Shown in pieces: positions 10,457 through 37,562 of a stretch of 64,000 nt of DNA. Source of the DNA: an uncultured Alphaproteobacteria bacterium (GTDB lineage Bacteria; Pseudomonadota; Alphaproteobacteria; Bin95); contig CALLKY010000012.1 of NCBI GenBank assembly GCA_938083135.1, forward strand, positions 986-64,985. The letters are read 5' to 3'. The notes under the pieces are model-generated. The model made no database searches. It was not told the origin of the DNA and worked only from the letters and a program-made list of their open reading frames with translations. Within the stretch, counting starts at the first letter, position 1, and the number at the start of each line of letters is the position of its first letter. The position numbers and the translations under genes are program-made.

Positions 10457-10861
10457 ATGGAAAACCATCAACGATCATTCTCGCCCACTGCAATAGCGCT
10501 GACGGCTGTCCTGGCGCTGACGCTCAGCGCGTGTGGTGGCCCGCCCAGGCTGACCTATGACGGTACGCGGCCATCCACGCCGTCTGCGAATATTGGCGCA
10601 CGTGCTGGCGTTAATAGTTCAGCGCAGGCAAGCCCTGGATTAGACGCGATTGTGTTTGCCGCTGCTGGCTCCGTGTATTCAGTTGATGAGCCAGGGCTTG
10701 GCGGACCGGTCGAGCTAACGGTACTGCGCGCATACAACGCAGCTAGCGGGCGCCTGTGCAAACAAGTGTCCGTCCGCCGCGTTACCGATGGCGGCACGAG
10801 TGGCCGTGTCGCGTGCCAGGGTGATACCGGTTGGTACTGGTCGCCGGTTACGACCGGCTAG
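10457..10861 (+). CDS. hypothetical lipoprotein
   Basis: It has the lipobox LALTLSAC followed by GG. No family was recognised. The start is the ATG at 10457 (the tracked TTG is at 10448). Confidence 0.5.
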   Translation: MENHQRSFSPTAIALTAVLALTLSACGGPPRLTYDGTRPSTPSANIGARAGVNSSAQASPGLDAIVFAAAGSVYSVDEPGLGGPVELTVLRAYNAASGRLCKQVSVRRVTDGGTSGRVACQGDTGWYWSPVTTG

Positions 10862-10869
10862 GCATCTCC

Positions 10870-11730
10870 ATGCGACTGCCCATGCGCCCTGACCATCAGC
10901 CTAGGCCGCTTGTCAGCCGGGGCGTCTCTGCGCCATCCTTATTGAGTGAGCTGCTGCAAGGCTTGGCCGTGCAGCGACGCGTGATCGTGGCAATTATCCT
11001 GCGTGAAGTACGGACCCGGTTCGGCCAGTATCATTTGGGCTATCTATGGGCCGTGCTTGTGCCGCTGCTGTTGATCATGACGCTGGCCTTCGTATACGCA
11101 GCCCTTGGACGCCGCGCGGCCCACGGCGCATCCGTCGAGTTGCTGTTGCTGTCCGGCATGATGGCATGGCTGACGTTTATAGATACGCAGAACCAGGCAT
11201 CTCGAGCATACCAGACCAATCGGCAGCTTGTGGTTTATCCGATGGTGTCTGTGGTTGATATTGTGATTGCTCGGGCGCTTTTGGAGTTTGGCACCAAGCT
11301 TGCTGCCATGAGTGTCCTGACCGCACTGTTCTGGGCTGCTGGTTATGATGTGGGAATCGCGGACCCACTCGGAGTGGCAGCGGCAATGCTGACGGTGATC
11401 TATTTGGGCGCTATGTTTGGCCATACCATCGGCTGCGTTTTGGTGATCGTGCCATCGTTTCTATTTATTGTCGCGACGAGTAGACGTATCTTGTTTTACA
11501 CGTCCGGCGTGCTGTTCCTACTGTCAGATGTGCCCACCGAATGGCGGACATATGTGCTCTACAACCCTTTGGCCCACGTAATTGACATGATACGCGGCGC
11601 CTGGATTGATTCATATTCCGCCCCCTATGGTGATGTCGTGTACGTTGCTGGATGGGCTGTCGGGCTAACCGCTACTGCAGCCGTTGGTGAACTCGTCGCT
11701 CGCCGCCGCCGCCTTGGCGCGAACCAGTAG
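10870..11730 (+). CDS. kpsM: capsule polysaccharide ABC exporter permease (ABC-2 type)
   Basis: Six-TM ABC-2 permease with the N-terminal segment ILREVRTRFGQYHLGYLWAVL. It sits immediately upstream of the cognate ATPase. Confidence 0.85.
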   Translation: MRLPMRPDHQPRPLVSRGVSAPSLLSELLQGLAVQRRVIVAIILREVRTRFGQYHLGYLWAVLVPLLLIMTLAFVYAALGRRAAHGASVELLLLSGMMAWLTFIDTQNQASRAYQTNRQLVVYPMVSVVDIVIARALLEFGTKLAAMSVLTALFWAAGYDVGIADPLGVAAAMLTVIYLGAMFGHTIGCVLVIVPSFLFIVATSRRILFYTSGVLFLLSDVPTEWRTYVLYNPLAHVIDMIRGAWIDSYSAPYGDVVYVAGWAVGLTATAAVGELVARRRRLGANQ

Positions 11731-11739
11731 GGTGCGCCC

Positions 11740-12390
11740 ATGATCACGCTTGATGGCGTTAGCAAATCGTACCGGACAGCGAATGGATACCGGGTCATTC
11801 TGGATGACGTATCGATTCTGCTGCCGACGGATCGGCACATAGGGGTGCTTGGCCGCAACGGTGCGGGCAAATCGACATTGTTGCGCATGATCTCAGGCGA
11901 AGAAGAGCCGGATACCGGCAAGATTACCCGCCGCGCGCGCGTTTCCTGGCCGCTTGGCTTTACGGGCGGGTTTCACCCGGCGCTGACGGCACGGGAGAAC
12001 CTGCGTTTCATATCGCGCATCTACAACAGCGATATCGAAGAAGTAACCGCCTTCGTGGATGATTTCGCGGAGCTGGGCGACTATTTTGATATGCCGATCT
12101 CTACGCTGTCATCTGGCATGCGCGCCCGGCTGGCATTTGGGCTCAGTCTTGCCATGCGGTTCGATTTTTATCTGATTGATGAGATTGTTTCAGTCGGCGA
12201 CTATTGGTTCCGGGCGAAGGCGCAGGCGGAATTTGACCGTATCCGCAACGAAAGCGGCATGCTTTTAGTCTCGCATAGCCCTGCCACCATCCGTAAATTC
12301 TGTGATACAGGTCTGGTGCTTCGGAATGGCCGTTTGGTTATGTTCGATGCGCTTGAAGACGCAATCGACTTTTATCTTGATGATGATTAG
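11740..12390 (+). CDS. kpsT: capsule polysaccharide ABC exporter ATP-binding protein
   Basis: Walker A is GRNGAGKST, the signature is LSSGMRARL, and Walker B is FYLIDE. At 216 aa it has the typical KpsT size. Confidence 0.9.
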   Translation: MITLDGVSKSYRTANGYRVILDDVSILLPTDRHIGVLGRNGAGKSTLLRMISGEEEPDTGKITRRARVSWPLGFTGGFHPALTARENLRFISRIYNSDIEEVTAFVDDFAELGDYFDMPISTLSSGMRARLAFGLSLAMRFDFYLIDEIVSVGDYWFRAKAQAEFDRIRNESGMLLVSHSPATIRKFCDTGLVLRNGRLVMFDALEDAIDFYLDDD

Positions 12391-12402
12391 GGACAGGCAC
12401 CT

Positions 12403-13605
12403 TTGAACGCGCAGGTCATAGCATCCGGCGGCAGCGCCCCGGCGACGACTGAAAAGCAACAGCCGCCGTCGAAGGTGATCCCAGCTGTGCGCCCATCTGC
12501 GCCTGGGCGCCGGCGGAAACGCAGTGGCGGCCTGCTCGGTGCCTTTGCCATGGTCGTGCTGGCACCAACGCTGCTGGCCGCGATCTATTTCGGCCTGATC
12601 GCATCGCCGCTCTATGTATCCGAAGCCCACGTCACGATCCGCTCAACAAAGCAGCAATCGACATCTTTGATTGAAGCTGTGGTGACACAGGGTGCCGGCG
12701 TCAATCTCGCCACGGAAACAGAATTGGTGGCTGATTATTTGCGATCCCGCGATCTGTTGAACCGGATTGAGAATCAAGTTGGCTTCCGTGAGCGCTATGC
12801 CACATATCAGGCAGACTTTTTCTCCCGCCTAGAACCCGGTGCTTCCCGGGAAGAAGCCCATAAATACTTCCAACAGGTGGTCCAAGTTTCAGACACGGGC
12901 TCCGGGCTTTTGGAAATCAAGGTAAAGGCCTTCACGGCGGCTGATGCACACACGGTCATCCAAGCCGCGATTTCGGCGGCGGAAGTTGTCGTGAACCAGC
13001 TATCAGACCAAGCGCAAGCTGATGCGTTGACAGCTGCTGAAGCAGAAGTAACCCGCGCACTTGACCGCGTTACAGATGCCCTTGGCGCTATCGCGGCTTT
13101 CCAGCAAGCCAAGGGTGATATTGACCCCAGACGATCCGCTGAAGCGATACTGGCCGTTGTCGCCGGGTTGGAAGCAAGTTTGGCAGAGGCGCAGATTGAG
13201 CGCGCAGAGCTGCGGAGCGTCCTCCGCCCGACAGCGCCTGCTGTGAAAGCGCTTAATAGTCGTATTGGCGCGCTACAGCGGGAACTTGCACAAGCCCGTG
13301 CGCGTTTGGCTGACAATCGTGACAGCGATATTGCTGAAGATGTGCAGGCCTTCGACATTGAGCAAAAGAAGCTCCAATTGGCAGAACGCGCCTATGAATC
13401 CGCGCTGATTTCGCAACAGACAGCGCGACAGCAGGCCCAGAATGACCGCAGCTATCTGGTGGCCTATGTGCCGCCGTCGATGCCAGATGTCGCGACGGAG
13501 CCAAAGCGGCTGTATAAGATCACGACGGCATTTGTCGTCTCATTGCTGGCCTTTGGGGTCGGCGCACTCATTATCGGAGCGATCCGCGAACATGCGCGCG
13601 CCTAA
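12403..13605 (+). CDS. kpsE: capsule export inner-membrane/periplasmic adaptor (KpsE, PCP-3/GumC-like)
   Basis: It has an N-terminal TM segment (AMVVLAPTLLAAIYFGLIASPLYVSEA), a long coiled-coil periplasmic region and a C-terminal TM segment. It lies between kpsT and kpsD. The start is TTG. Confidence 0.8.
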   Translation: MNAQVIASGGSAPATTEKQQPPSKVIPAVRPSAPGRRRKRSGGLLGAFAMVVLAPTLLAAIYFGLIASPLYVSEAHVTIRSTKQQSTSLIEAVVTQGAGVNLATETELVADYLRSRDLLNRIENQVGFRERYATYQADFFSRLEPGASREEAHKYFQQVVQVSDTGSGLLEIKVKAFTAADAHTVIQAAISAAEVVVNQLSDQAQADALTAAEAEVTRALDRVTDALGAIAAFQQAKGDIDPRRSAEAILAVVAGLEASLAEAQIERAELRSVLRPTAPAVKALNSRIGALQRELAQARARLADNRDSDIAEDVQAFDIEQKKLQLAERAYESALISQQTARQQAQNDRSYLVAYVPPSMPDVATEPKRLYKITTAFVVSLLAFGVGALIIGAIREHARA

Positions 13606-15352
13606 GTTTCTCCTCGCAGCCCTGGCGGCTTATTTCGCCCTAGCGCTTGCCCCGCCTGCCATCGCCGTTGATGAAGACGCGCTGGACCGTGTGCGCAAGT
13701 TCGCCATTGGCTCAGCTGCTGCTGAAGCTGCCGCCCGCAGCCGCTCTAATGCTGCAGCAGCCAGCGCTGCGCGGTCTGCCGCTGCTGCGCAGAATGAAAC
13801 TGGCCAGGAAGCCGCAGGCATCGCTGGCGAGGCAGATGCGCGCCGTGATGTGGAACGGGCAGAACGCCGGGCCCGACCCTTCGGCTGGAACCTCTTCAAC
13901 GGCCAGTTCGCGACCAATACGGCCAATGGGCTCAATCCTGGCTATCTTATCGCGCCGGGTGATCGGGTTCAGGTCAATCTATTTGGTGCTAAGGCCTACA
14001 ACGAAGTCACGGTGGTAGACGCCCAGGGTAATTTGTTCGTGCCAGAGGTTGGCCCAATCCGGGTCGCAGGCGTATCGAATTCCCGGCTGCAATCGACTGT
14101 GCAGGCCAAAGTCTCCCGGGTCTTCACGGACAATGTGCAGGTCTATGTAAATCTTCTGGGTGCGCAGCCGACTGGAGTGTTCGTGACCGGTGCCGTGATG
14201 CGCCCTGGGCGCTATGGCGGCCTGCCGAACGACTCGCTGCTGTCTTTCATCGACAAAGCTGGCGGGATTGATGTTCGCAGTGGGTCATTCCGGGATGTGC
14301 GTATTCTGCGGGCAGGCCAGGAAATTGAACGGGCGGATTTGTATGAATTCCTGGTCCGGGGTCAATTGCCAACGCCGCAATTTAGGGAAGGCGATACAAT
14401 CCTGATCGGCCCTATCGGCGGATCTGTGACAGTTGACGGTGCTGTTAGAGCGCCCGCAGCGCTGGAATTCCAACGGTTCCCAGTGCTGGGGCAGGAACTT
14501 GTGAGCTACGCCCGCCCAACATCAGACGCTACGCATGTCGCTCTGAGTGGTATCCGGGGCGGACAGCCCTTCAACACCTACATGAGCTATAGCCAGTTTC
14601 TACAAACCAGCCTTGGTGACGGTGATCTGGTGACGTTTCAGGCGGACCTGCGCGCAGGCAAAGTATTTGTGGAAGTGGACGGTGCGCATCTGGGTGCAAG
14701 CCGTTTCGCAGTCCCACGCGGTGCCAGGATTGAGGACGTTCTGGACCTCGTGGAAGTGAACCCGGATGTTGCCGCGACACAGTCAGTCTATCTCCGCCGC
14801 GATAGTGTCGCGCGGGACCAGAAACGGGCGCTCGATCGTTCGCTTGACGCGCTGGAACGTTCGGCACTCGCGGCTCTTAATCAGACGACCAGCCAAGCCG
14901 ATATCCGCGAACGCGAGGCCCGGCTGGTGCTGGACTTCATCAAACGTGCGCGGGATGTGCAGCCCGATGGCCGTGTCGTGATTTCAACAGATGCCGGCCG
15001 TGCGAACGTTATGCTGGAAGCGGGCGATGTGATCATCGTACCGCAGCGCACCGATCTTGTGCTGATTTCAGGCGAAGTGACCTTGCCGCAATCAGTTGCG
15101 CATATCTCCGGCGCGTCGGTTGAGGATTACGTCGCCCGGGCTGGCGGGTATGCCGAACGGGCTGATCCAGAGAAAATTATCATCATCCGGGCGAGCGGCG
15201 AGGCCTTGAACGGTCCTGGCGTTCAGGTTCGCCCGGGTGACCAGATCATGGTGCTACCCGTTGTCGATGTTAAATCCTTTGAAATCGGTAAGGATGTCCT
15301 AGACGTGCTGTTCCGCGTCGCAATTATTGCGGCGACGGTTATTGCGCTGTAA
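13592..15352 (+). CDS. kpsD: polysaccharide export protein (KpsD/Wza-like, Poly_export plus SLBB repeats)
   Basis: It has the signal peptide MRAPKFLLAALAAYFALALAPPAIA. The Poly_export motif is YLIAPGDRVQVNLFG...GNLFVPEVGPIRVAGV, followed by repeated SLBB-like GD.I.VP segments. The ATG at 13592 overlaps the kpsE end by 14 nt. Confidence 0.85.
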   Translation: MRAPKFLLAALAAYFALALAPPAIAVDEDALDRVRKFAIGSAAAEAAARSRSNAAAASAARSAAAAQNETGQEAAGIAGEADARRDVERAERRARPFGWNLFNGQFATNTANGLNPGYLIAPGDRVQVNLFGAKAYNEVTVVDAQGNLFVPEVGPIRVAGVSNSRLQSTVQAKVSRVFTDNVQVYVNLLGAQPTGVFVTGAVMRPGRYGGLPNDSLLSFIDKAGGIDVRSGSFRDVRILRAGQEIERADLYEFLVRGQLPTPQFREGDTILIGPIGGSVTVDGAVRAPAALEFQRFPVLGQELVSYARPTSDATHVALSGIRGGQPFNTYMSYSQFLQTSLGDGDLVTFQADLRAGKVFVEVDGAHLGASRFAVPRGARIEDVLDLVEVNPDVAATQSVYLRRDSVARDQKRALDRSLDALERSALAALNQTTSQADIREREARLVLDFIKRARDVQPDGRVVISTDAGRANVMLEAGDVIIVPQRTDLVLISGEVTLPQSVAHISGASVEDYVARAGGYAERADPEKIIIIRASGEALNGPGVQVRPGDQIMVLPVVDVKSFEIGKDVLDVLFRVAIIAATVIAL

Positions 15353-15367
15353 CGCGCCGTACAGCCC

Positions 15368-16669
15368 GTGCGCGTTCTGATCCTCTCAGCTGCACCTGCA
15401 GTCACGGACGCTCGGGTTCGGGCGACAGCACTTTCGCTTGCGGCACTTGGGCATGATGTTGACGTAGTGTGCCGCACAGCTGCGGCAGAAATTGGAGTAC
15501 CGCAGCAAGAAGACATTGGGAGCGCTCGGCTCGCCCGGATTGCATTTAATGATGTCTCGAAGCTGGATAACAGGTCCGGTCTTGGCGGCTTGGGGCGCGG
15601 TTGGCTGCAGTATCTTTCTTGGCTGCGTCGGATGGCGCTCAAGTTAAAGCGTCCCGGTGCGGCGCGTGCATTGGCGCTGACGCAGGAGTTTTGGGCGATT
15701 GGGCCGCAGGCAGAGCAAGTGCTGGCTGGGGCTGATGTAGATGTCGTGCATGCGGTCGGCCTGCCAGCATTGCCAGGTGCGGGGCGGTTGGCTAAGCGAT
15801 GGGGTGCGGCGCTCGTCTACGACTCTGTTGAGCTGGAGCAAGACCGGAACACCCAGTATTTCGGCCCGTTTGGTTGGTTGCGGATGCGGCTGGAAAAAAC
15901 CTGGATCCGCCGGGCCACCGCTGTGACGACGGTCTCATCGGAGATTTCAAAGCACCTGGCGCGGCTTTACGGCATCACCCCGCCGGAGATCATCCACAAT
16001 ATTGCGGCCAGCCGCGAATCAAAAGAAACGATCCGGGATGTGCTGTCGACGCCTGATGCTGCGCCAATGGCTGTTTATGTCGGTGCTGCGGGATTTGGCC
16101 GTGGGCTTATGCCGTCCCTGGAGATGCTGCTAGCCGCACCGGAGTTTTATTTGGGCATTGTCGGGCCACAGGAAGACCGTTTCCGGCTGCGCTTTCAACT
16201 GGCGGCGGATCGGCTTCAGGTCTCGAAAAGGGTTGGCATGGCCCTGGCGCGCCCGCCGATCGAGGCCGCATCATTCGTAAGTTCAGCCAATGTTGCATTG
16301 GCGTTGATAGAGCCGGTGTGCCTGTCCTATGCCTACGCGCTACCCAACAAATTGTTCCAGGCTGTGCAAGCAGGGCTACCGATTGTGGTTGGGCGCACAC
16401 CATCCCTCGCGCGGCTCGTCACTGCCTGTGGTCTTGGCGAAACCGTGGATGAGCGGGACCCGGTTGGAGTGGCAGCGGCTGTCCGCCGCCAGGCAGCCCG
16501 GCATGGTACAGGTGAGTACAAGGCAGCCCGTGCGCTGTTTCTATCCGAATATGACGAAAATGCGGCGATATCTGCTTGGGCGCGCCTTTATGCGGGCTTA
16601 CTTCCAAGGTTAGGTGATGACCGTCACAGACTCGTTGCAGATGGAACTTCGCAGAGCCGTAATCATTGA
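15368..16669 (+). CDS. glycosyltransferase, GT-B fold (GT4-like)
   Basis: The N-terminus MRVLILSAAP...LGHDVDVV and the C-terminal YALPNKLFQAVQAGLPIVVG are typical of GT4 enzymes. The start is GTG. Confidence 0.7.
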   Translation: MRVLILSAAPAVTDARVRATALSLAALGHDVDVVCRTAAAEIGVPQQEDIGSARLARIAFNDVSKLDNRSGLGGLGRGWLQYLSWLRRMALKLKRPGAARALALTQEFWAIGPQAEQVLAGADVDVVHAVGLPALPGAGRLAKRWGAALVYDSVELEQDRNTQYFGPFGWLRMRLEKTWIRRATAVTTVSSEISKHLARLYGITPPEIIHNIAASRESKETIRDVLSTPDAAPMAVYVGAAGFGRGLMPSLEMLLAAPEFYLGIVGPQEDRFRLRFQLAADRLQVSKRVGMALARPPIEAASFVSSANVALALIEPVCLSYAYALPNKLFQAVQAGLPIVVGRTPSLARLVTACGLGETVDERDPVGVAAAVRRQAARHGTGEYKAARALFLSEYDENAAISAWARLYAGLLPRLGDDRHRLVADGTSQSRNH

Positions 16670-16770
16670 CGGTTCAGTAAGCCAGTGCCATGTAGGTACA
16701 TACCCAACAATGATATTTGGCACGTAAGCTGAATGTTAGGCGGAAAGATCGCCACCAACCGGGGGACGTC

Positions 16771-17835
16771 ATGATTCAGTCTTTTGAAGGCGCAGTAGTC
16801 GCTGTTACCGGCGCTGCCGGTACGGTCGGTAAAGAGCTGGTCCGCCAGCTGCTTAATGAGCCGACAGAACAGGTACGTGCGCTCGATAATAACGAAACAG
16901 GCTTATTTGAGCTTGAGCATGAAATGAACAAGCCGGGCCAGCTGGCCGCGTTCTTGTGCGACATCTCCCGCGAAGAAGGTTTGATGCGCTTCCTCGACGG
17001 TGTGGACTATGTGTTCCATGCCGCTGCGCTGAAGCATGTGCCGCTTTGTGAAAATAGCCCGTTTGAGGCTGTGCGCGTCAATGTGCATGGCATGGAAAAC
17101 GTCATTCGCGCCTCCTTGGCTGGTGGCGTGAAGAAAGTGCTTTTCACTAGCTCCGATAAAGCGGTTAACCCAACCAGCGTGATGGGCACGACCAAGCTGA
17201 TGGGTGAGCGCCTGATTACGGCAGCACAGAACCTTTCCAGCGCACGCCGCCCGACGATCTTTGCATCGACGCGGTTTGGCAATGTGGTAGGCTCACGCGG
17301 CTCGGTCCTGCCACTGTTCATGCAGCAGATTGAGCGCGGCCTGCCAATTACATTGACGCACAATGAGATGACCCGCTTCATGATGACCTTGGAAGAGGCA
17401 TCAGGGCTTGTTATCGACTCGATCCGCTACGCGTCCGGCGGCGAAAACTTCATCACCAAAATGCCAGTAATGCGCATCCGCGATGTTGCTGAAGTCATGG
17501 TGGATATGATGGCCCCATACTATGGTCGCGATCCACGGGATTCTGAGATCAAGATCATTGGCATGCGCCCTGGTGAGAAACTCTATGAAGAGCTTTCAAC
17601 GGCCGAAGAATTGGCACGTATGTGGGATTGCGGGCGTTACTTCGTGGTTGATCCGCTGAATGTGGATGGTGAGCGCACTTACCCCAGTGATAACCCACAA
17701 CCCACGGACCGGGTCTATATCTCATCCACTGAACCAGCGATGAGCCATGAGGGCATCCGCTCCTTCATCGAAGCCGCGCAAGTCCTCCCGGAGGACTACG
17801 AGCCAGCCCCGACACCGCGCGTCGCGCTCGGCTGA
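16771..17835 (+). CDS. nucleotide-sugar 4,6-dehydratase/epimerase (Polysacc_synt_2; CapD/PseB/FlaA1-like)
   Basis: It has the Rossmann motif VTGAAGTVGKELVRQLL, then FHAAALKHVPLCENSP and TSSDKAVNPTSVMGTTKLMGE. The ATG at 16771 is preceded by GGGGGA. Confidence 0.85.
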   Translation: MIQSFEGAVVAVTGAAGTVGKELVRQLLNEPTEQVRALDNNETGLFELEHEMNKPGQLAAFLCDISREEGLMRFLDGVDYVFHAAALKHVPLCENSPFEAVRVNVHGMENVIRASLAGGVKKVLFTSSDKAVNPTSVMGTTKLMGERLITAAQNLSSARRPTIFASTRFGNVVGSRGSVLPLFMQQIERGLPITLTHNEMTRFMMTLEEASGLVIDSIRYASGGENFITKMPVMRIRDVAEVMVDMMAPYYGRDPRDSEIKIIGMRPGEKLYEELSTAEELARMWDCGRYFVVDPLNVDGERTYPSDNPQPTDRVYISSTEPAMSHEGIRSFIEAAQVLPEDYEPAPTPRVALG

Positions 17836-22204: not shown

Positions 22205-22852
22205 TTACTTCAGCAGTTTCAGCACCGCTTTTGCAGCAGCGCGAACTTCTTCAGCGCCAACGCTTTTGGGCTTCGTCTCAAGCACTGTCAGCCCTTCACC
22301 CATAGCAGCGGCAAAGGCGACGCGAGCACCGATGCGCGGCTTGAGGAGTGTGCCGCCAAGTTCGCTCGCTCCCTTGGCAATGGCGTCTGTCAGTCGGGCG
22401 CGGGGCGGTGTGCGGTTTAGCAGGAACGCGAGCGGGCAATTGGCGGCCTCTGCCAGATCCGCGACCGGTTTGGATGCCCAAAGGTCCAGCGGGCTCGGTT
22501 GGATCGGCGCGATGGTCAGATGGGCGGCGCGTAGGGCTTGGCGCGTATCTGTGTCGGAATGGGGCGGGGCGTCGATCAACACGAAATCCACGGCGTCCGC
22601 ACCGCGCAATAGGCGCTCTGCGGCTTCGCGGACCCGGTGGCCGGGTATCGCTTCCACAGACAAGGCGAACTTCGGGGCAGGTGCCAGGGCGCTGCGAATG
22701 CCGCCCCAGGCGATAAGCGTGCCTTGCGGGTCTATATCGAGGAGGGCGACACGTTTGCCTGTTTCGGCGAAGGCGGCGGCTAGGTGAGCGGTGACAGTTG
22801 TTTTGCCGACGCCGCCTTTTTGTTGCGCTATAGCGATAATGCGGCCCGGCAT
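22205..22852 (-). CDS. ParA/MinD-family P-loop ATPase (orphan, small type Ib-like)
   Basis: It has the deviant Walker A segment IAQQKGGVGKTT, then LLDIDPQG and VLIDAPPH. There is no parB-like partner gene nearby. Confidence 0.8.
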   Translation of the reverse strand: MPGRIIAIAQQKGGVGKTTVTAHLAAAFAETGKRVALLDIDPQGTLIAWGGIRSALAPAPKFALSVEAIPGHRVREAAERLLRGADAVDFVLIDAPPHSDTDTRQALRAAHLTIAPIQPSPLDLWASKPVADLAEAANCPLAFLLNRTPPRARLTDAIAKGASELGGTLLKPRIGARVAFAAAMGEGLTVLETKPKSVGAEEVRAAAKAVLKLLK

Positions 22853-22880: not shown

Positions 22881-23231
22881 CTAGTGAAGTCGTCCGCCAA
22901 GTGGTGTGTCGTAGGTGGGCTGAATCAGAACAACGGCACCGTCTGCATCTGGAAAACCAAGAAGCAGGAACTGGCTTTGGAACTTGCCGATCTGCTTGTT
23001 CGGGAAATTGACGACGCCAGCAACCAGCTTACCGATTAGCCCTTCAGGTGTGTAATGCACCGTAATCTGAGCGGATGTTTTTAGCTCGCCAATTTCTGGC
23101 CCGAAATCCACCCAGACTTTGAAGGCGGGCTTGCGCGCTTCAGGATATGGCTCCGCATTAACAATGCGGCCAACGCGGATATCGACATTCAGGAATTCAT
23201 CGAAGGTCAGATTGGACTCAGGCTTTGGCAT
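22881..23231 (-). CDS. csaA: tRNA-binding domain protein CsaA
   Basis: FDEFLNVDIRVGRIVNAEPYPEARKPAFKVWVDFGPEIGELKTSAQIT is the classic CsaA/OB-fold sequence. The start is taken at the internal ATG at 23231. Confidence 0.8.
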   Translation of the reverse strand: MPKPESNLTFDEFLNVDIRVGRIVNAEPYPEARKPAFKVWVDFGPEIGELKTSAQITVHYTPEGLIGKLVAGVVNFPNKQIGKFQSQFLLLGFPDADGAVVLIQPTYDTPLGGRLH

Positions 23232-23235
23232 GGCT

Positions 23236-23727
23236 TCAACTCTGTAGGCGGAGCATATGGTAGCGACCGTCCGCCACCATTCCCGGCAAAGGGAATACAT
23301 CGCCGCCAGCCAGGGTCAACCGTTGATCGGAAACAATCATACAGCCGGGTGCTGCCAGGGGCTGCAGCATCGGCCCTAGCCATTCTGCGAGAGCCAGTGT
23401 GTCAGCCTTGTCGCCACTGCCGATATCGCCGTGCATCAGTGCGGCCTGTTCGCCAAGCTTCGCTGCAATACCGGGAATAGTGTCGCGGAAATCGCCTTCG
23501 ATCAGGTTTTCAGCGGGCGGCATGCTGTCTGGATGCGCCATGGCTTTGCGTTCGAACACAACGATGCGCCGATCAGGCAGCAATTCTTTGAGGTGGTCAT
23601 AGGTGCGGCCATTGCCAAGGCCAAGCTCCAGGACGATGCCGGGAACATCCTTGATCATGGCTGCAGCACGGTTCAGGCAGGCGCGCTGCGCTTCCAGCCG
23701 GCGGATGGCGCTGTCTAGGCGGCTCAC
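23236..23727 (-). CDS. small class I SAM-dependent methyltransferase-like protein
   Basis: Motif I-like segment VLELGLGNGRTYDHL. It is 163 aa, and its start overlaps the upstream stop by 4 nt. Confidence 0.55.
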   Translation of the reverse strand: MSRLDSAIRRLEAQRACLNRAAAMIKDVPGIVLELGLGNGRTYDHLKELLPDRRIVVFERKAMAHPDSMPPAENLIEGDFRDTIPGIAAKLGEQAALMHGDIGSGDKADTLALAEWLGPMLQPLAAPGCMIVSDQRLTLAGGDVFPLPGMVADGRYHMLRLQS

Positions 23728-24179
23728 TTCGGTATTTTCGCGATCGCTTCGCGGAGTTGGTTGGTCGTATTTTCGAGGCGGCTTGCCAGCACGCGGATAA
23801 TTTCGATCCCGACCTGGGGTGAGTTATTCAGCAGGCGCAGGAAATTATCTTTGGAGATTTTCAGCGCGACCAATTCGTCCTGCGCTTCAACCGTCGCCGT
23901 ACGCGGGATATCAACCAGAATGGCGATTTCACCGACGATTTGGCCTGCACCCAGTTCGGCCACCTTAAGTGGGCCATTGGGTGTATTGACCAGCACATTG
24001 GCACCACCCGTGATCACGACATAAGCGGCGTCACCATCGTCGCCTTGGCGCATCATGGTGCCGCCAGGTCTAAAGGTGACCCGGTCACTGGTCATGGCTA
24101 ACAGTTTCAGTTTCGCTGGCTCCATCCGCTCAAACAGAGCGATCTGGCGCAGCACATCGACTTCTTCCGCCAAAGACAT
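23724..24179 (-). CDS. stand-alone cyclic nucleotide-binding domain protein
   Basis: 151 aa. It has the cNMP beta-barrel with the phosphate-binding cassette GEIAILVDIPRTATVEA and no attached effector or DNA-binding domain. Confidence 0.85.
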   Translation of the reverse strand: MSLAEEVDVLRQIALFERMEPAKLKLLAMTSDRVTFRPGGTMMRQGDDGDAAYVVITGGANVLVNTPNGPLKVAELGAGQIVGEIAILVDIPRTATVEAQDELVALKISKDNFLRLLNNSPQVGIEIIRVLASRLENTTNQLREAIAKIPK

Positions 24180-24190
24180 CGATAGCTTCC

Positions 24191-26821
24191 TTAACTCGCT
24201 GGTTCGGCCGCAGCCGAATCTAGCGTTTCTACGTTAACGACCTTACCGCCAGCCACCTCAGCCGCACGGTCAAATCCTTTCAAATACTCGCCATCGCCTA
24301 CGGCCCAAACGACACCGCCAGGGGCTGCCGCCAGCACGCGATCAACGAGCGCATGCCGTGTCCGTGTGTCCATGCCATCTGTCGCGGCATTCAAGATCAG
24401 GATATCTGGCTGCTTGGCGAGCGCGCGCGCAATGGCGATCTTCTGGCGCTGTGTGCCAGATAGCCTGGACCCACCGATGCCAACCTGGAACTCCAGACCC
24501 GCGCCGACGATATCCCGGCGCAAGCCAAGCTCGTCCACGGTTTCGTCAATCAGGCGACCAACTGTTTCAGGACCTTCAGCTTGGCCATAAGCGATTTTAC
24601 CGAACAGGATATTATCCTGCACGGACGCCACGGCGTTGAACTCAGCAGGGTCAAAGAACTCGACAGCACCCGCCAGGTCTTCCGGCATATGCTCACGGAA
24701 GTGCTTGCGGGCCTCGATGACGCGTTCACGGATTTCGTCAGTGATAAGGCCTAAACGGTGACGGGCCGGGATGAGCTTGAACGGCAATGTCAGCAACATG
24801 GACCGTTCACGGTCATTCAGGGCTTCAGCGCCGCCGCGATCAAACTTCGCCACAATGATCTGATATTCCGGCAGATCTTCGGCCTTAATGAAGCTGTATT
24901 GCTCGAACAATGCGTCACCGGGCTCTACATCCGCGAACAATTCGAGCATCAGGGCGGCAGTTTCGCGACCAATGCCGAGTAAGTCTTCGGTCAGACCAAC
25001 TTCCTTGATCGTTGCAAGCACATAGGCGTGGTCGCCAAGCGCATCGACGTTCAGCTTGTCGGAGATCACCGTGCCGAACAGCAGGTTCTCTGCCAATGAG
25101 GCATTGTCGTTGTATTTTTCTGGGTCATAGGGCTCGACCAAATCTTCCAAGCTTTGCTCAGCGAGCAGTGCGCTCAATCGTGCCCGGGCCTCAAGAATGC
25201 GGTCGCTCAGGCCATCCCTGCCTGTCAGATCAACGGCACTGCGGAGGCCGTAGTCATAAACGGCACGAGTCAGATCGACCTCTTCCAGAAGGGCGATCAG
25301 GCGATCATCAGTCGTTGCGGTTTCGTCGACGCCAAGGGTTTTGTAATCGACCCAATCATCGTTGAAGTCTTCGTCAGTGTTACCCGCACGAGCGTTCTCC
25401 GCCATTTTTTCGGTACGGGCGGCGGTCTCTTCCTCATCAATTTCTGGCGTCGCCAAGGGGCGATGTTTCAGCCCGAATAGCAGGTTCGCTCGTACGCTAT
25501 CGGAGAAGAGATATGCGGCGGGGCCGACATAGGCCAAGCGTCGCCCTGTGCGAGCTTCCGTGAAGTCTGCCAGATCTTCGCCCGCAATCGCGACGCGGCC
25601 ACCTGTGGGTATCAGCAAGCGCGCGAGGAGGGCGGCGAGCTCGTCCTTGCCGCCGCCGGATGGGCCAGTCAGTGCCAAGCGTTCGCCTGCCTTGAATTCC
25701 AGGTTCAAGTTCTGGACAGGCGTCGAGGTTTCGTCTTCCTGATAGGTCAGGCTCTGCGCTGCGACTGTTGCATCCTTCGGGATGGGGCTGACGGACTCGG
25801 GCTCTTCCAGCTGCAGGCTTTCGTCCAGCATGCCGGGCGGATCGAACTGCTCGACGACCTGCTCGTATTTGATCCTGGCGTCCATGTATTGCTGATAGAA
25901 GGCCAGCAATTCTTTCCAGGGCGAGTTCATGTCTTTATGGGCGCTGATAACGCCGATAAGCGCGCCGATGGAAAGATTGCCCTCGATCACCAGATAACCG
26001 CCTATGAGATAGAACAGAAACGGCGTGAACTGGGCCAGCGTATTGTTGATGAACTTGATGATGAATTTACGCTGATAAATCTCAAAGCGAATGTCGTAGA
26101 TGCGGCCAAGGTGCATCGCGAATTCAGCGCGCATCAGGTTAGATGCATCGTTGGAATGCACTTCCTGGATGCCATTGATGCTTTCGCTGATGCGCTCAGA
26201 AACGCGCCGAACAGCTTGCACACGCCGCTTGCCGAGGGCGTTCACCTTCTTTTGCAGCTTTGGAATGATGTAGCCCTGGATCGGGAACATCGCCATTGCC
26301 GCACAGCCCATCATCCAATCCTGGACAATGATGAAGATCAGGAACGTGATCAGCATCCCAGCCTGGAAAACCGGCTGGGCAATCGCGTCACCAATGAAGC
26401 CGCCTAACGGCTCAACTTCCTGGGTGATCATCGGGATCACTTCACCCTGGGATACACGCTTGAAATGGGGCAGCGGGAACCTGAGCACCCGGCCATAAAG
26501 CGTATAGCGCAGGCGGCGCAGCATACGCTCACCCAGGCGGCCCTTGGATGAATTGATAAAGAACTTGAACCCGCCATTGATGATGACGAGCAGCAAAAAG
26601 CCGAAGCACATGAGTATGAGGAACGGTATCTGCTCGAACTCGAAACCAAGCACTTCCTTGGGGAAATCGCTCACACTGCCGCGAATCGCATCATTGACGA
26701 TGCGCTTCACAATATCCGGCTGGAGATAAATGAATGGGAATGCCGAACAGGTGACGATCAACAGAAATATCTGCTGCGCCTTGCTGTAGCGGAATATGAA
26801 GCCGTATATCGTGCGGTCCAT
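24191..26821 (-). CDS. ABC exporter-like protein: type I transmembrane domain plus an expanded, motif-degenerate nucleotide-binding domain
   Basis: 876 aa. The N-terminal ~330 aa look like an ABC_membrane domain. The NBD landmarks are GPSGGGKD (Walker A-like, aa 385-392), LSGTQRQKIAIARAL (signature, aa 787 onward) and ILILNAATDGMD (Walker B position). Confidence 0.8.
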   Translation of the reverse strand: MDRTIYGFIFRYSKAQQIFLLIVTCSAFPFIYLQPDIVKRIVNDAIRGSVSDFPKEVLGFEFEQIPFLILMCFGFLLLVIINGGFKFFINSSKGRLGERMLRRLRYTLYGRVLRFPLPHFKRVSQGEVIPMITQEVEPLGGFIGDAIAQPVFQAGMLITFLIFIIVQDWMMGCAAMAMFPIQGYIIPKLQKKVNALGKRRVQAVRRVSERISESINGIQEVHSNDASNLMRAEFAMHLGRIYDIRFEIYQRKFIIKFINNTLAQFTPFLFYLIGGYLVIEGNLSIGALIGVISAHKDMNSPWKELLAFYQQYMDARIKYEQVVEQFDPPGMLDESLQLEEPESVSPIPKDATVAAQSLTYQEDETSTPVQNLNLEFKAGERLALTGPSGGGKDELAALLARLLIPTGGRVAIAGEDLADFTEARTGRRLAYVGPAAYLFSDSVRANLLFGLKHRPLATPEIDEEETAARTEKMAENARAGNTDEDFNDDWVDYKTLGVDETATTDDRLIALLEEVDLTRAVYDYGLRSAVDLTGRDGLSDRILEARARLSALLAEQSLEDLVEPYDPEKYNDNASLAENLLFGTVISDKLNVDALGDHAYVLATIKEVGLTEDLLGIGRETAALMLELFADVEPGDALFEQYSFIKAEDLPEYQIIVAKFDRGGAEALNDRERSMLLTLPFKLIPARHRLGLITDEIRERVIEARKHFREHMPEDLAGAVEFFDPAEFNAVASVQDNILFGKIAYGQAEGPETVGRLIDETVDELGLRRDIVGAGLEFQVGIGGSRLSGTQRQKIAIARALAKQPDILILNAATDGMDTRTRHALVDRVLAAAPGGVVWAVGDGEYLKGFDRAAEVAGGKVVNVETLDSAAAEPAS
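24599..25543 (-). repeat. three tandem copies (protein level) of the Q-loop/helical-subdomain module inside the ABC-like NBD
   Basis: The motif N(L/I)LFG occurs at aa 446, 579 and 737. VEPYDPEKYNDNASLAENLLFG (aa 562-583) parallels VEFFDPAEFNAVASVQDNILFG (aa 720-741). Each copy is followed by an (E/D)(V/E)xL...GL segment. Confidence 0.6.
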
Positions 26822-34396: not shown

Positions 34397-36646
34397 CTAC
34401 AGCCCACTGATGGTCAGAATGACTGTGTCGGCGGCCTCAATCTCCACGACCGTATATTCACCGACATTCTTGGTGGAATGCGCGCGGATAGGCCGCCCTG
34501 CCAAATCATCCAGCCGGAAGTTTGAACCGTTCGGCGTGTAGATCCACACAGTCATCCGGGTATCGTTGGGCGCATCTTTTGGCCCCCGCCGCGTTTCTTG
34601 CGCTGCCTCAACCCTTGGTGCGGCCGCGATCTGGAATTGAGCTGCACTTGGGCCTGGAACAGTGGGTGGTGCTGTAATGTAGAAATCACCCGCGATGTAG
34701 GCGTCCGGGTTGAGATAAGCGAACCCTTCTGCTGCCCAACGCCATCCACCGGCACCGTCCATATCAGCTGGGATATAGGTTTCATTTGCCGCCAGCTGGT
34801 ATGTATGGCTGATCTCACCAAGCGCCCGCCAATTCTTGACACGCAGCAAAGGTGCAGCACGGGAAAACCAAATGCGCGCTGCTTGGTCCTCAAATTTGAT
34901 TTGCGATACGCCGACACCAATCAAGGGCTTATTGCCATCCGTGCGGGTGACGTAAACCCCACCTTTGCGATAGATGGCGTCAACCAACCCGCCAGCAATC
35001 TCACTGTCGTGAATGTCCCAATCGCCACTGTCGTAGTAGAAACCATCGTGCGGCACGTCGATATTTTGGCGGCATGAGCGCACTAAGACCGGGTTCGGTC
35101 CCTTGCAGGCGAAGAACACAGGCGTTGTGGCTAAGCGACCATATCGGGCATGCCAGCCCTTCTGTGCTTTCCCTCTTGGATCATATTTTACAGTGCGGAG
35201 ATGGGGCGCTGCACGGACATTGTGCCAGCGGATGGAGGTACCTTCTCGCACTACATAGTCGGCATAGTGCATGTATTCCATATAGCGATTAGCCAGTAGA
35301 CCCAGCCGCGCACGGGGGTTTACGGCGCGCATTGCGGCTTTCATATCCCGGAGCAGGATGTGCCGCGCGTGGTTGTGGGAAATCGTAGCATTCGGATTAT
35401 CACCGCCGACATGGCCGTTCGGCATGTTCCAAAGAAACGCGCCATCCATGAAGATGCCCTCATAGCCGTTCTGCAACGCTTCAACGGCGCGGGCGATGAA
35501 GACGTCACGGGCGGTCTTCTTGGTGATGTCCAGCAGGTGCCAATGGCCTTTAGATTTATGACTATAGGGGGCCAAGTGCTGTTTGCCGGCAGAGTCCGTC
35601 AGCATCAAGTTTGAAAGCTGGCGCGCGTCGCCGTCCCGGGTCGATACAGCACCCATGAAGAGATAGTACTCGGGCGATGCGCCGCCCTCCCGGATAGATT
35701 GCGCAGCCGCCGCAAGGGGCAGGGCGATCCGGGCGATTGCAATGCTATTCTCGCGTGGCATGGCGGATGCGAATGCACGCATTTCGGAATCTGTTGCAAA
35801 GCACGTGCGTTTGCGGGCTTTGCTGGCACCGCCGCAATGCTTGCCACGGGCATCTTGAATGAGGCCACGACGGCTGATGGAGCCGACCACAGGTGCCCAT
35901 TGGTTGGGCACAAACTGCGCAATTTCAGCATTCTGCATGCCGCGTCGATCAGGTGCGCCGAAGCGTTTGTCCTGGATGCGGGCAAGCGATACGTCCACGT
36001 AGAACCGCATGGCTTTTTGTTCGCCACGGCGCACATCCATGCGCGAACGGGCTTTGTCGCCATTGCGGTTGAACTCAGTGAAATAGGGGAAGAAGGCGCT
36101 GATCCGGCCTGGCTTTGCTTCATAGGCGATGCCACCAAGCTTCGGTGTGTCGTACACGACGAAATGCTGGCCGGTCTTGAAGCCTGGAACAATGCTGTCG
36201 CCATCGCGAACGGGGCGTTTGACAGCCTTGTTCCAATTATAGGGGTAGAACGTGGAGATGCCTTTGCCCGAATCAGCCGCAAGCTTCGTCGCGGTCAAGT
36301 TCAGCAATTCAATCCGCTGTGTCCGCGCCACGGCAACGGCACCAATTTCCGCAGCAGCCAGGGCCTGATTGAATCGGAAGTTGAGATCAACCCGGCCATT
36401 CTGATGGCTGATCCTTACGGTCGCTAGTGTAGCGCCATTTGCACCAGTAAAATTGAAGTCGCCCGCGCCGCCAGCGCAATCGCCGCCAGCGAGGGTGATC
36501 TTCTGGCTTTTCGACAGGACGAACGGCTTGAACGCGATGCCCTGGCCAATGCCCAAGCTGTTGCAAGATGCGGCGAGGACGCTGGCGGGTGCGGAAAAGC
36601 CCGCCAGCATGACACCTAGAACAAAGGCGATTCCGCACTTAGTCAT
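34397..36646 (-). CDS. large secreted hypothetical protein with a possible glycoside-hydrolase-like (GH114/GHL-type TIM barrel) core
   Basis: 749 aa from the ATG at 36646. It has the signal peptide MTKCGIAFVLGVMLAGFSAPASVLAAS. The central segment WHLLDITKKTARDVFIARAVEALQNGYEGIFMDGAF resembles the ...G.DG.F.D strand of GH114-like hydrolases. The family assignment is weak. Confidence 0.55.
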   Translation of the reverse strand: MTKCGIAFVLGVMLAGFSAPASVLAASCNSLGIGQGIAFKPFVLSKSQKITLAGGDCAGGAGDFNFTGANGATLATVRISHQNGRVDLNFRFNQALAAAEIGAVAVARTQRIELLNLTATKLAADSGKGISTFYPYNWNKAVKRPVRDGDSIVPGFKTGQHFVVYDTPKLGGIAYEAKPGRISAFFPYFTEFNRNGDKARSRMDVRRGEQKAMRFYVDVSLARIQDKRFGAPDRRGMQNAEIAQFVPNQWAPVVGSISRRGLIQDARGKHCGGASKARKRTCFATDSEMRAFASAMPRENSIAIARIALPLAAAAQSIREGGASPEYYLFMGAVSTRDGDARQLSNLMLTDSAGKQHLAPYSHKSKGHWHLLDITKKTARDVFIARAVEALQNGYEGIFMDGAFLWNMPNGHVGGDNPNATISHNHARHILLRDMKAAMRAVNPRARLGLLANRYMEYMHYADYVVREGTSIRWHNVRAAPHLRTVKYDPRGKAQKGWHARYGRLATTPVFFACKGPNPVLVRSCRQNIDVPHDGFYYDSGDWDIHDSEIAGGLVDAIYRKGGVYVTRTDGNKPLIGVGVSQIKFEDQAARIWFSRAAPLLRVKNWRALGEISHTYQLAANETYIPADMDGAGGWRWAAEGFAYLNPDAYIAGDFYITAPPTVPGPSAAQFQIAAAPRVEAAQETRRGPKDAPNDTRMTVWIYTPNGSNFRLDDLAGRPIRAHSTKNVGEYTVVEIEAADTVILTISGL

Positions 36647-37562
36647 GAATGTAGTAATAAACGCGGCGGAGCGATGCGGACATGTCACCAGCTGCAACCA
36701 CAAGGCTGTTATAGGCCCCTTTGTAGGTGCCATCGTTCACATCAATCAGCGGCTTTTTGTTGACGCTGACGCGGATACGGCCATCTGGGCGGGGCTGGGC
36801 CTGAACCCGAACTTGGTCGCCATCACGAACCGCACTATCGAGGCTCGCAACCGCAAGCCGTTTGACGCCGCTACGAGAGATCACATGCAAAGATACGCTA
36901 GGGGCGGCACCTGGGATCACGGTGATCCAATAACCAGCCCGGCGGTTTGTGCCTTGTGTCAGGCCAATTCGGATATTGGCGTCTTGTGCGTTCGCGACAG
37001 TGCCAGCGTAAAGAATGACATCAAGCGCGAAGGCGTTTGGCAGCGAGCGATCCAGTGTTAGACCAGCATTGTCTGATGGATTGCCATTGCCTGCAGCACC
37101 GCCACCGCCGCCGCCTAGGATCGCGCTGAGGACGCTAGAGGCATTGCCGCCACCGCCAGCCATGCTGGACGGCGTCATGGAAAGACCGGTTTTCTTGTCA
37201 TAGCCAAACCGGCCAAACAGCGCCGTCCAGCGCGGATTGTTTGAATACTCGCCGTCCACGAATTGCTCTTCGATGAGCCGGTTGTTCCAGTAAGGCTTAT
37301 TGGTGCCAAGTGCCGCGCGCAGGTCTTTCAGGAACTTGGGATCAGCGGCTTTCGCTTTTTCTGCTTTGTCGACCAATGCGCCAATTTCATCTTTCAGCGC
37401 CTTAAGCTCTGCCTTTGAATTCGTGGATTTTTTGGCGGCGACAGGCTTGGTATCGGCGTCAGGGTCGCTCCAGCGGTTATAATTGCTCTGAGACATGGCG
37501 GGTGAAGCGGCCATAGCAACGGCGAGCGCCGTCGCTGCGATGGACAGTGTTAAGTGGCGCAT
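36639..37562 (-). CDS. secreted hypothetical protein (coiled-coil, Gly-rich linker, beta-sandwich-like C-terminal domain)
   Basis: It has the signal peptide MRHLTLSIAATALAVAMAASPAMS and a strong RBS (GGGAGGA). Its stop overlaps the downstream ATG region by 8 nt. Confidence 0.6.
   Translation of the reverse strand: MRHLTLSIAATALAVAMAASPAMSQSNYNRWSDPDADTKPVAAKKSTNSKAELKALKDEIGALVDKAEKAKAADPKFLKDLRAALGTNKPYWNNRLIEEQFVDGEYSNNPRWTALFGRFGYDKKTGLSMTPSSMAGGGGNASSVLSAILGGGGGGAAGNGNPSDNAGLTLDRSLPNAFALDVILYAGTVANAQDANIRIGLTQGTNRRAGYWITVIPGAAPSVSLHVISRSGVKRLAVASLDSAVRDGDQVRVQAQPRPDGRIRVSVNKKPLIDVNDGTYKGAYNSLVVAAGDMSASLRRVYYYIHD

Follow-up and report, generated by a model that had tools for sequence, protein, structure and literature searches.

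A divergent exporter-like gene and the gene behind it

The 64-kb stretch of alphaproteobacterial DNA analyzed here (the window; contig CALLKY010000012.1) carries on its minus strand a gene for a protein of the ATP-binding cassette (ABC) exporter type, followed by a gene for a stand-alone cyclic-nucleotide-binding (CNB) protein, its putative partner. Coordinates are those of the window, and amino acids are numbered along the 876-residue product of the ABC-like gene, whose open reading frame (ORF) is intact (Table 1). An earlier annotation, hereafter the original prediction, covered 24386-25669, which corresponds to amino acids 385-812, from Walker A to Walker B. It had described an exporter-like protein whose nucleotide-binding domain (NBD) has lost every catalytic motif and carries a triplicated helical subdomain, and it had guessed at a ligand-gated or regulatory role.

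The two Pfam families proposed for checking this prediction both matched the product: ABC_membrane (PF00664) scored 89.8 bits against a cut-off of 28 over amino acids 33-293, and ABC_tran (PF00005) scored 68.4 bits against a cut-off of 25. The ABC_tran match came in two pieces, the better-scoring of which spans amino acids 369-481 and positions 1-96 of the 137 in the profile. In a phmmer comparison with PDB chains, ABCB4, ABCB1, and MsbA aligned only to amino acids ~74-469 and ~777-829, leaving unmatched a stretch of ~300 residues that runs from the post-Q-loop helix to the signature; the query stretch between the two ABCB4 segments is ~300 amino acids longer than that of the chain. The distance from Walker A (386) to the signature (787) was found to be ~400 amino acids, in agreement with the predicted ~395 and as compared to ~100 in ordinary NBDs, and the whole NBD-like domain measures ~530 amino acids.

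A single-chain AlphaFold model built on a 120-sequence alignment reached a predicted local distance difference test score (pLDDT) of 84.2 and a predicted template modeling score (pTM) of 0.77, with the cytoplasmic part mostly above 85 in pLDDT, and showed long membrane-domain helices. Foldseek matched this model to P-gp, PCAT1, Atm1, MsbA, and TmrAB, with E values of ~1e-15 for the last four. By fold, the protein belongs to the ABC exporter superfamily.

The only internal regions of the monomer model with a pLDDT below 50 are two highly conserved stretches, EVEPLGGFIGDA... (26351-26416, amino acids 136-157) and KDMNSPWKE (25916-25933, amino acids 297-302). As modeled, they may be a hinge or an interface whose ordering requires the dimer or a partner.

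Table 1. Features of the ABC-like gene and of the genes that follow it in the window.
Feature	Position	Strand	Amino acids	Basis
ABC-exporter-like gene, whole ORF	24191..26821	-	1-876	ORF list, Pfam, homologs, dN/dS
Transmembrane domain, six long helices, type-IV exporter fold	25832..26821	-	1-330	Pfam, AlphaFold, Foldseek
Deviant Walker A, GPSGGGKD	25643..25666	-	386-393	Lys kept, Asp for Ser/Thr
Module A: canonical-position Q-loop strand, NLLFG at 446, helices	25157..25537	-	429-555	ABCB4 alignment, hhalign
Module B: second copy (VEPYDPEKYNDNASLAENLLFG...)	24677..25156	-	556-715	hhalign versus C
Module C: third copy (VEFFDPAEFNAVASVQDNILFG...)	24464..24676	-	716-786	hhalign, Ste6 match
Signature LSGTQRQK (787), Walker B ILILNA (807-812), D-loop DGMD	24368..24463	-		ABCB4 alignment
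H-loop region GVVWAVGDGEY, Gly842 at the His site	24284..24316	-	836-846	Column fixed by relatives
Stand-alone cyclic-nucleotide-binding protein, 151 amino acids, putative partner	23724..24179	-		PF00027, synteny
S-adenosylmethionine-dependent methyltransferase (Methyltransf_17), 163 amino acids	23236..23727	-		Pfam E 1.7e-50; downstream in 62/82 loci
tRNA_bind (CsaA-like) gene	22881..23300	-		Pfam E 8e-12; 6/82 loci
ParA/MinD-type ATPase gene, after tRNA_bind in the window's clade only	22205-22852	-		4/82 loci

Hydrolytic residues are replaced while the P-loop and signature persist

Every motif string quoted in the original prediction was located in the product: GPSGGGKD at 386, AYVGPAAYLF at 430, LSGTQRQKIAIARAL at 787, ILILNA at 807, TDGMD at 814, and WAVGDGE at 839. 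In the alignment with ABCB4, GSSGCGKS stands opposite GPSGGGKD, with Lys392 present and the Ser/Thr replaced by Asp393. The Q-loop Gln of ABCB4 stands opposite Gly433, followed by Pro434, and its Walker B LLLDEA opposite LILNAA, where the Asp has become Asn811 and the catalytic Glu Ala812. The H-loop column can be assigned to Gly842 because relatives still read ...ALHR... at this place. These substitutions bear out the predicted changes in Walker A, the Q-loop, Walker B, and the H-loop. The D-loop claim, TDGMD for SALD, held in part: the substitution was seen (SALD stands opposite D815-G-M-D818), but the final Asp is retained. The signature, predicted to be nearly intact, was found to be intact (LSGTQRQK). 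Profile alignments (Pfam and phmmer versus PDB) revealed no canonical Walker B, Q-loop, or H-loop residues elsewhere in the protein. The five sites of the catalytic residues are occupied by Asp393, Gly433/Pro434, Asn811, Ala812, and Gly842, and, judged by its motifs, the protein falls outside the definition of an ABC ATPase, its hydrolytic residues having been lost.

To place these changes in the family, we used 185 aligned sequences, comprising the window protein and its relatives: its own subfamily (alignment A2, 120 sequences) and a broad family (alignment A3, 65 sequences that are 24-48% identical to the query). None of the 185 sequences holds five or more of six canonical catalytic residues. 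Within the subfamily, the P-loop glycines Gly386 and Gly391 are invariant (120/120), Lys392 is present in 111 sequences with Arg in seven more, and Asp or Glu fills the Ser/Thr site in 114. The corresponding numbers among the 65 broad-family sequences are 53 and 52 for the two glycines; 28 Lys, 15 Arg, and 14 Ala at position 392; and 27 Asp/Glu as compared to 16 Ser/Thr at the next site. The Walker B Asp site holds Asn in 108 and Asp in three of the subfamily members (Asn in 36 and Asp in 19 of the broad family). The catalytic-Glu column is mixed (in A2, M33, E30, G15, D15, Q13, and A10; in A3, Glu in 19), and so is the H-loop column (in A2, E35, H24, D21, G13, and Q13; in A3, His in about five). 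The signature is nearly fixed in the subfamily (L in 118, S/T in 114, Q in 118, R in 120, and Q in 120) and less conserved in the broad family (S/T 34/65, Q 41/65).

The claim that every catalytic motif has been lost was thus only partly correct: the hydrolytic residues are gone, but the subfamily strongly conserves the P-loop glycines, the Lys, and the signature. Because of this conservation, nucleotide binding is likely to be retained there, and the P-loop and signature are likely to form a site that binds nucleotide without hydrolyzing it, as far as the residues indicate. In the broad family, the Walker A acid tends to be found together with the Walker B Asn (18:3 versus 8:8; Fisher p = 0.03, uncorrected for phylogeny). 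Because this covariation is weak, we treat a "charge swap" between the two sites as a lead rather than a finding.

The helical module of the NBD is triplicated

The excess length of the domain lies in three tandem modules (A, B, and C), each with the Asn-containing N-x-L-F-G motif (NLLFG at amino acids 446 and 579, NILFG at 737). The repeats were tested with hhalign using sub-alignments taken from A3 (segments 420-555 for A, 545-712 for B, and 705-790 for C). B matched C with a probability of 98.8% (E 1.3e-16, 73 columns), A matched C with 95.8% (E 8e-9, 69 columns), and A matched B with 87.6% (E 3.5e-6, 59 columns), whereas the controls, namely reversed modules, a membrane-domain segment, and a C-terminal RecA segment, stayed below 5% (E >=0.009). 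A single-sequence self-BLASTP found no internal repeat matches, the repeat being visible only with profiles; the pair of 22-mers that the original prediction had quoted as a striking match is identical at 11 of 22 positions by manual count.

Each unit starts with a helix ending in (E)AR, which leads into a strand (VExxD in B and C) and then AS/DS-hxxN-[LI]-LFG; a further strand and helices ending in GLxxD...GL follow the LFG. The AlphaFold model repeats this order of strand, short helix, strand, and helices three times, with first strands at 429-432, 562-564, and 720-722, short helices at 443-451, 576-581, and 734-739, and second strands at 452-457, 583-585, and 741-743. Few columns of the family are as conserved as the Asn and Gly of these motifs: all 185 sequences share N579, G583, and G741, while N446 is found in 120/120 of A2, and N737 in 120/120 of A2 and 63/65 of A3. 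The modules differ in their extensions. Module A has an acidic insertion of ~45 amino acids among its helices, and module B a helical extension of ~75 amino acids containing the near-invariant LPFKLIPARHRLGL. H688 is kept in 119/120 and 59/65 and R689 in 118/120 and 63/65 of the A2 and A3 sequences, respectively. On the strength of the profiles, the internal triplication of the Q-loop/NxLFG/helical module is real and family-wide, as the original prediction had it.

Module C is the helical subdomain at the canonical position because it is contiguous with an X-loop-like QVGIGGS and the signature. The best stretch of the phmmer match to Ste6 (7qkr), amino acids 733-836, covers this region, and module C together with the C terminus gave a Pfam match confined to the signature region. 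What goes beyond the canonical NBD is module B together with the extensions of A and B. Modules A and B in isolation gave no ABC_tran match in a Pfam scan, and the module B profile found no ABC protein among PDB sequences, the best hit being an unrelated aminomutase (E 0.088). Module B is thus tied to the ABC helical subdomain solely through its likeness to C. The isolated insert was modeled with a pLDDT of 88 and a pTM of 0.81; Foldseek returned no significant match for it in the PDB (best E 0.39), and no known domain can therefore be assigned to the assembled insert. As an assembly, the modeled insert is without a solved counterpart. In canonical exporters, the coupling helices are received in a groove lined by the NxLFG segment, and we speculate that the CNB protein or other partners dock on the extra modules.

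The family is widespread and under purifying selection

More than 120 full-length homologs (868-938 amino acids, 49-98% identity) were found in Nisaea, Thalassobaculum, and uncultured Alphaproteobacteria. The insert alone, searched against 1.84 billion representatives clustered at 50% identity, retrieved 826 clusters at E <=1e-3 and 550 at E <=1e-10. In a scan of one genome per species (alignment A1), a relative was present in at least 570 species genomes. The best 80 of these are almost all Alphaproteobacteria (Nisaea, Thalassobaculum, Azospirillum, Stellaceae, Sneathiella, Defluviicoccus, and Geminicoccaceae), and remoter members occur in Thalassospira, Bosea, Chelatococcus, Methylobacterium, and Paenirhodobacter. 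The ratio of nonsynonymous to synonymous substitution rates (dN/dS) against the closest relatives (L003, L004, and L005) was 0.018, 0.041, and 0.057, and no region, not even the degenerate RecA core, reached 0.1. These values indicate strong purifying selection on the gene.

The most conserved region is the membrane domain, with a mean top-residue frequency of 0.75 in A2 and 0.57 in A3, and the least conserved is the RecA core (0.52-0.58 and 0.36-0.43); the inserted modules lie between the two. Among the cytoplasmic columns of the broad alignment, G408, N579, G583, and G741 alone are invariant. In ordinary ABC exporters, the NBD is the conserved part. Set against this general knowledge, the conservation profile of the family is reversed. 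The search for orthologs that the original prediction had proposed thus showed that both the motif changes and the insert are common to the whole family. They argue against the decay of an MsbA-type exporter gene in a single strain, a reading that draws its sole support from motif losses in a single sequence and that we regard as virtually excluded.

That decay or pseudogene reading was ruled out by the presence of the family in at least 570 species genomes, the 826 insert clusters, and the dN/dS of 0.02-0.06.

Members of the family bear generic names in their sources ("multidrug transporter," "ABC transporter ATP-binding protein," or "ABC transporter transmembrane domain-containing protein"), and these are probably misleading. 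No account of the family emerged from literature searches for an ABC exporter that is CNB-associated or degenerate at both sites. It is an uncharacterized, functional family with the type-IV ABC exporter fold, found across the Alphaproteobacteria.

A few contigs carry unexpected labels. One from a metagenome-assembled genome (MAG) labeled Fluviibacter (L013) is 100% identical to the window over amino acids 436-876, and the family gene also occurs on MAG contigs labeled Gammaproteobacteria (L007) and Anaerolineae (L025). These labels are probably binning errors and not signs of lateral transfer.

A cyclic-nucleotide-binding protein is the constant neighbor and putative partner

The ABC-like gene ends with TAA, and the CNB ORF starts 11 nt further on, behind an AAGGAAG ribosome-binding site, a spacing of the translational-coupling type. 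Its product matched cNMP_binding (PF00027) with an E value of 4e-18 (65.5 bits versus a cut-off of 27.5). It has an intact phosphate-binding cassette, GEIAILVDIPRTA (pattern G-E-x-A...R-[ST]-A), which predicts binding of a cyclic nucleotide; the cassette motif is retained in 71 of 82 orthologous partners. Synteny was counted over 82 loci of relatives, and the CNB gene lies directly downstream of the ABC-like gene in all of them.

The two proteins are also found as one. Long members of ~1030-1156 amino acids carried a C-terminal cNMP_binding fusion in 8/8 tested (P0133, P0141, P0152, P0160, P0173, P0181, P0195, and P0216), one of them with an extra GGDEF-like C terminus by a weak Pfam match. 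The Thalassospira protein WP_102784181 is one such natural fusion. The fused genes adjoin class III nucleotidyl cyclases in three of four loci (L085, L086, and L087) and Apyc1-like metallo-β-lactamase (MBL) fold hydrolases in two of four (L083 and L086). The constant CNB neighbor, the C-terminal fusions, and the class III cyclases beside fused genes are new in this analysis, and they lend support to the earlier guess at a ligand-gated or regulatory protein.

MBL-fold genes were seen beside three family members (L083:5192-5971, L086:5803-6573, and L088:9627-10487). Those of L083 and L086 match Anti-Pycsar_Apyc1, a family of cyclic-nucleotide hydrolases. Together with the adjoining cyclases, the MBL genes suggest a local module for synthesis and degradation of cyclic nucleotides.

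Gene neighborhoods differ between the window and most relatives

In the loci of most relatives, a divergent glycosyltransferase cluster lies upstream of the ABC-like gene (51-71 of 82 loci, depending on the gene). It comprises genes for GT28-C-like (409 amino acids), GT4 EpsE-like (421 amino acids), and GT4 MshA-like (358 amino acids) proteins, a His_Phos_1 phosphatase, and a MurG-like protein of 386 amino acids. Remote unfused members (L084, L089, and L090) combine glycosyltransferases and an Opp/Yej-like ABC importer with the ABC-like gene; the CNB gene is present in L084 and L089, and the downstream ORF of L090 is without a Pfam match. The window's own clade (L003-L007 and L013) has BrkB/YihY upstream instead, in four of six loci.

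A canonical ABC ATPase ORF, with Walker A and signature, was found within 6 kb in only 7 of 82 loci, and the 64-kb window was found to contain neither such an ORF nor a second ABC exporter. In three Azospirillum loci (L054, L066, and L069), a canonical ORF of ~640 amino acids (828 in L066) lies 2-3 kb downstream; its Walker A is near residue 365 (553 in L066), with the signature ~110 amino acids later. An ORF of this kind is confined to these Azospirillum loci, and nothing else points to a possible heterodimer partner.

At least part of an Opp/Yej-like importer was seen beside the ABC-like gene or the glycosyltransferases in six loci of distant Alphaproteobacteria (L001, L002, L084, L086, L089, and L090). 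The parts are an SBP_bac_5 binding protein, two permeases, and a fused double ATPase with oligo_HPY. The Paenirhodobacter locus (L089) has the importer, the glycosyltransferases, and the ABC-like gene in collinear arrangement.

Possible roles of the ABC-CNB pair

We lean, with slightly better than even confidence, toward an ABC-fold gate or transporter that is non-hydrolytic and controlled by a cyclic nucleotide, as opposed to an ordinary ATP pump. Such a protein would run no ATP-hydrolysis cycle. In the subfamily, the P-loop (GxxGGGK[D/E]) and the signature of the opposite subunit would form a nucleotide-binding, non-catalytic site, comparable by analogy with the degenerate site of heterodimeric exporters or with site 1 of CFTR, and the bound nucleotide would be a structural ligand. 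The CNB partner would dock on the enlarged NBD, much as the C-terminal regulatory domains of MalK, MetN, and ModC do. Through it, the level of cyclic AMP (cAMP) or cyclic GMP (cGMP) would be coupled to the opening or closure of the NBD-like dimer and hence to the conformation of the membrane domain, resulting in a cyclic-nucleotide-controlled gate or facilitator. Because glycosyltransferases are linked in most relatives, namely in 63-71 of 82 loci and also in the remote members L084, L089, and L090, a glycoconjugate is suggested as cargo, and in these relatives it probably comes from the adjacent cluster.

Several points weigh against this reading. The absence of hydrolysis is inferred from the motifs only, and the P-loop and signature of the subfamily are as conserved as in active ATPases. 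Coordination of Mg2+, normally the task of the lost Walker B Asp, might conceivably have passed to the acidic residue that follows the Walker A Lys. The 64-kb window holds no glycosyltransferase cluster, Opp/Yej-like importer, cyclase, phosphodiesterase, or Apyc1-like MBL gene. Since the cluster is missing there, the cargo proposed for the window is borrowed from relatives.

A more far-reaching version of the cyclic-nucleotide-controlled gate, which we consider doubtful, is that the cyclic nucleotide replaces ATP hydrolysis as the switch of the exporter fold: a CNB domain, separate here and fused elsewhere, would dock on the triplicated modules, and by moving in response to cAMP or cGMP it would drive or gate dimerization of the dead NBDs and so yield a channel or facilitator. 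If true, that channel or facilitator would pass a glycoconjugate or small solute under second-messenger gating, and the protein would be the first homodimeric protein of the ABC exporter fold with two dead sites and a trigger other than ATP.

Among the alternatives, the protein could still be an ATP-driven exporter with a non-canonical catalytic site, built from the Walker A Asp/Glu and residues of the duplicated modules, in which the CNB protein modulates an active pump. This is fairly improbable, though best placed of the alternatives. It would fit the invariant P-loop glycines, the Lys in 111/120, and the nearly invariant Q-R-Q of the signature in the subfamily, the acid at the Ser/Thr site in 114/120 with its weak co-occurrence with the Walker B Asn (p = 0.03), and the retention of the Glu in 30/120 or the His in 24/120, about a quarter. 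It fits poorly with the broad family, in which the catalytic-Glu and H-loop columns are unconstrained and the Walker A Lys is replaced by Ala, Gln, Ser, or another non-basic residue in about one-third and by Arg in 15/65, and with a RecA core that is the least conserved region. An active ABC ATPase that is missing all four of these residues (Walker B Asp, catalytic Glu, Q-loop Gln, and H-loop His) is not known to us. A phrase search of a 2020 review of degenerate sites found no mention of a transporter with two such sites, and the review treats ATP hydrolysis as the energy source (PMC7756269).

A non-transporting role in signaling is unlikely: the protein would be a membrane scaffold whose ABC fold relays the cyclic nucleotide to the glycosyltransferases, the Opp/Yej-like importer, or the cyclases. 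The family recurs beside all three, one member has the additional GGDEF-like C terminus (weak Pfam match), and a regulatory ABC protein is already known in SUR. However, the most conserved region is the six-helix membrane domain, which better suits translocation or a ligand cavity than a passive anchor, and the window's clade keeps the ABC-CNB pair without glycosyltransferase, importer, or cyclase neighbors.

About equally unlikely is the possibility that the protein is the non-catalytic half of a heterodimeric exporter such as TM287/288, TmrAB, or BmrCD, with its signature completing a consensus site together with a canonical half-transporter encoded elsewhere. The canonical ORF 2-3 kb downstream in the three Azospirillum loci would suit such a pairing. 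A degenerate Walker B and H-loop with a retained signature is also what marks the degenerate subunit of such exporters (PMC7756269). Yet the partner genes of heterodimeric exporters are normally adjacent, canonical ATPases within 6 kb are confined to 7/82 loci, with none in the window, the broad family also loses signature residues (Ser/Thr 34/65, Gln 41/65), and the conserved partner is the CNB protein.

Comparison with known systems

The homodimeric type-IV exporters (MsbA, Sav1866, PglK, NdvA/ChvA, and HepA) share the domain order and the half-transporter size class of the window protein, and MsbA and HepA are its best NCBIfam matches. It failed every equivalog test: 184.7 versus a cut-off of 602 bits for MsbA (TIGR02203), 162 versus 725 for HepA, 146 versus 435 for CydD, 134 versus 733 for NdvA (PRK13657), and 91 versus 1000 for PglK. 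Many of these exporters move glycolipids or glycans, which fits the glycosyltransferase neighborhood of most relatives. Unlike them, the window family has lost the hydrolytic residues, has a triplicated helical subdomain that adds ~300 amino acids, has a membrane domain more conserved than its NBD, and has an obligatory CNB partner.

Exporters with a degenerate site (TM287/288, TmrAB, BmrCD, TAP1/2, and site 1 of CFTR) have similar changes of the Walker B Glu, the H-loop His, and the Q-loop. As far as we know, one consensus site is retained in all studied exporters that have a degenerate one, as it is in ABCC proteins, and the partner gene is usually adjacent. In contrast, the window family has lost the Walker B Asp itself and has no conserved nearby partner, and a homodimer, which is assumed here, would have two degenerate sites. 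The degenerate sites of the known exporters, with P-loop and signature retained, bind ATP but hydrolyze it poorly (PMC7756269), and the window's subfamily follows this pattern of preserved binding elements and missing catalytic ones.

That a membrane domain of the ABC exporter fold can work without ATP hydrolysis is known from SbmA (PMC8442886, PMC13316013). SbmA/BacA transporters (SLiPT) are proton-driven and without an NBD, whereas the window family keeps an enlarged NBD-like domain and a CNB sensor.

CFTR and SUR use the exporter fold for gating or regulation instead of pumping, and CFTR is under cAMP control via protein kinase A. Unlike the window protein, they are eukaryotic full-length ABCC proteins that need ATP binding and hydrolysis at one consensus site, and cAMP does not act through a CNB domain. 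The C-terminal domains of MalK, MetN, ModC, and OpuA-CBS control NBD dimerization, and the CNB domain of the fused relatives stands at the same position, at the C terminus of the NBD. These four are active importer ATPases, while the NBD of the window family appears inactive by its motifs. Literature searches found no description of a CNB domain in an NBD-regulatory role and on an inactive NBD.

A precedent for a CNB protein paired with a type-IV exporter is provided by the NHLP bacteriocin exporters (TIGR03797/TIGR03896), which are annotated "permease/ATPase subunit" in NCBIfam. The likeness is weak: the window CNB protein matched TIGR03896 at E 5.6e-11 (42 versus a cut-off of 161 bits), and the ABC-like protein scored 107 bits against the TIGR03797 cut-off of 709. 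Large inserts between Walker A and signature also occur in Rad50/SMC, UvrA, and ABCF proteins. These consist of coiled coils, Zn modules, or arm/linker segments and not of tandem helical subdomains, and the proteins are soluble, active ATPases, unlike the window protein.

ABC exporters are defined mechanistically by ATP-driven dimerization of their NBDs. Against this background, the family would be a useful natural experiment: it is widespread and strongly selected, keeps the fold without the hydrolytic residues, is tied to a cyclic-nucleotide sensor, and has tripled the very subdomain that normally receives the coupling helices. It would reveal what the ABC scaffold can do without hydrolysis. 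The family is also a candidate direct membrane effector of cAMP/cGMP signaling in Alphaproteobacteria such as Azospirillum, Methylobacterium, Thalassospira, and Nisaea, and it is relevant to specialists in ABC transporters and in bacterial cyclic-nucleotide signaling.

Other genes in the window

The GTG start of the methyltransferase gene overlaps the TGA stop of the CNB gene (GTGA). The tRNA_bind gene is a doubtful member of the unit because only loci of the window's own clade have it after the methyltransferase. As listed, its ORF overlaps the methyltransferase gene by 65 nt, and its true start is therefore probably further downstream.

Further away, a 778-amino acid ORF at 34397-36733 on the minus strand matched no Pfam family at E <=1e-5. 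On the plus strand, a run of same-strand ORFs at 10831-17835, ~9 kb from the region of the original prediction and with no established link to the ABC-like gene, may be an exopolysaccharide export cluster. It includes a small ABC-ATPase-like ORF (11740..12390), seen as a weak tblastn match, and a Wza-like export protein with Poly_export and SLBB domains (13442..15352).

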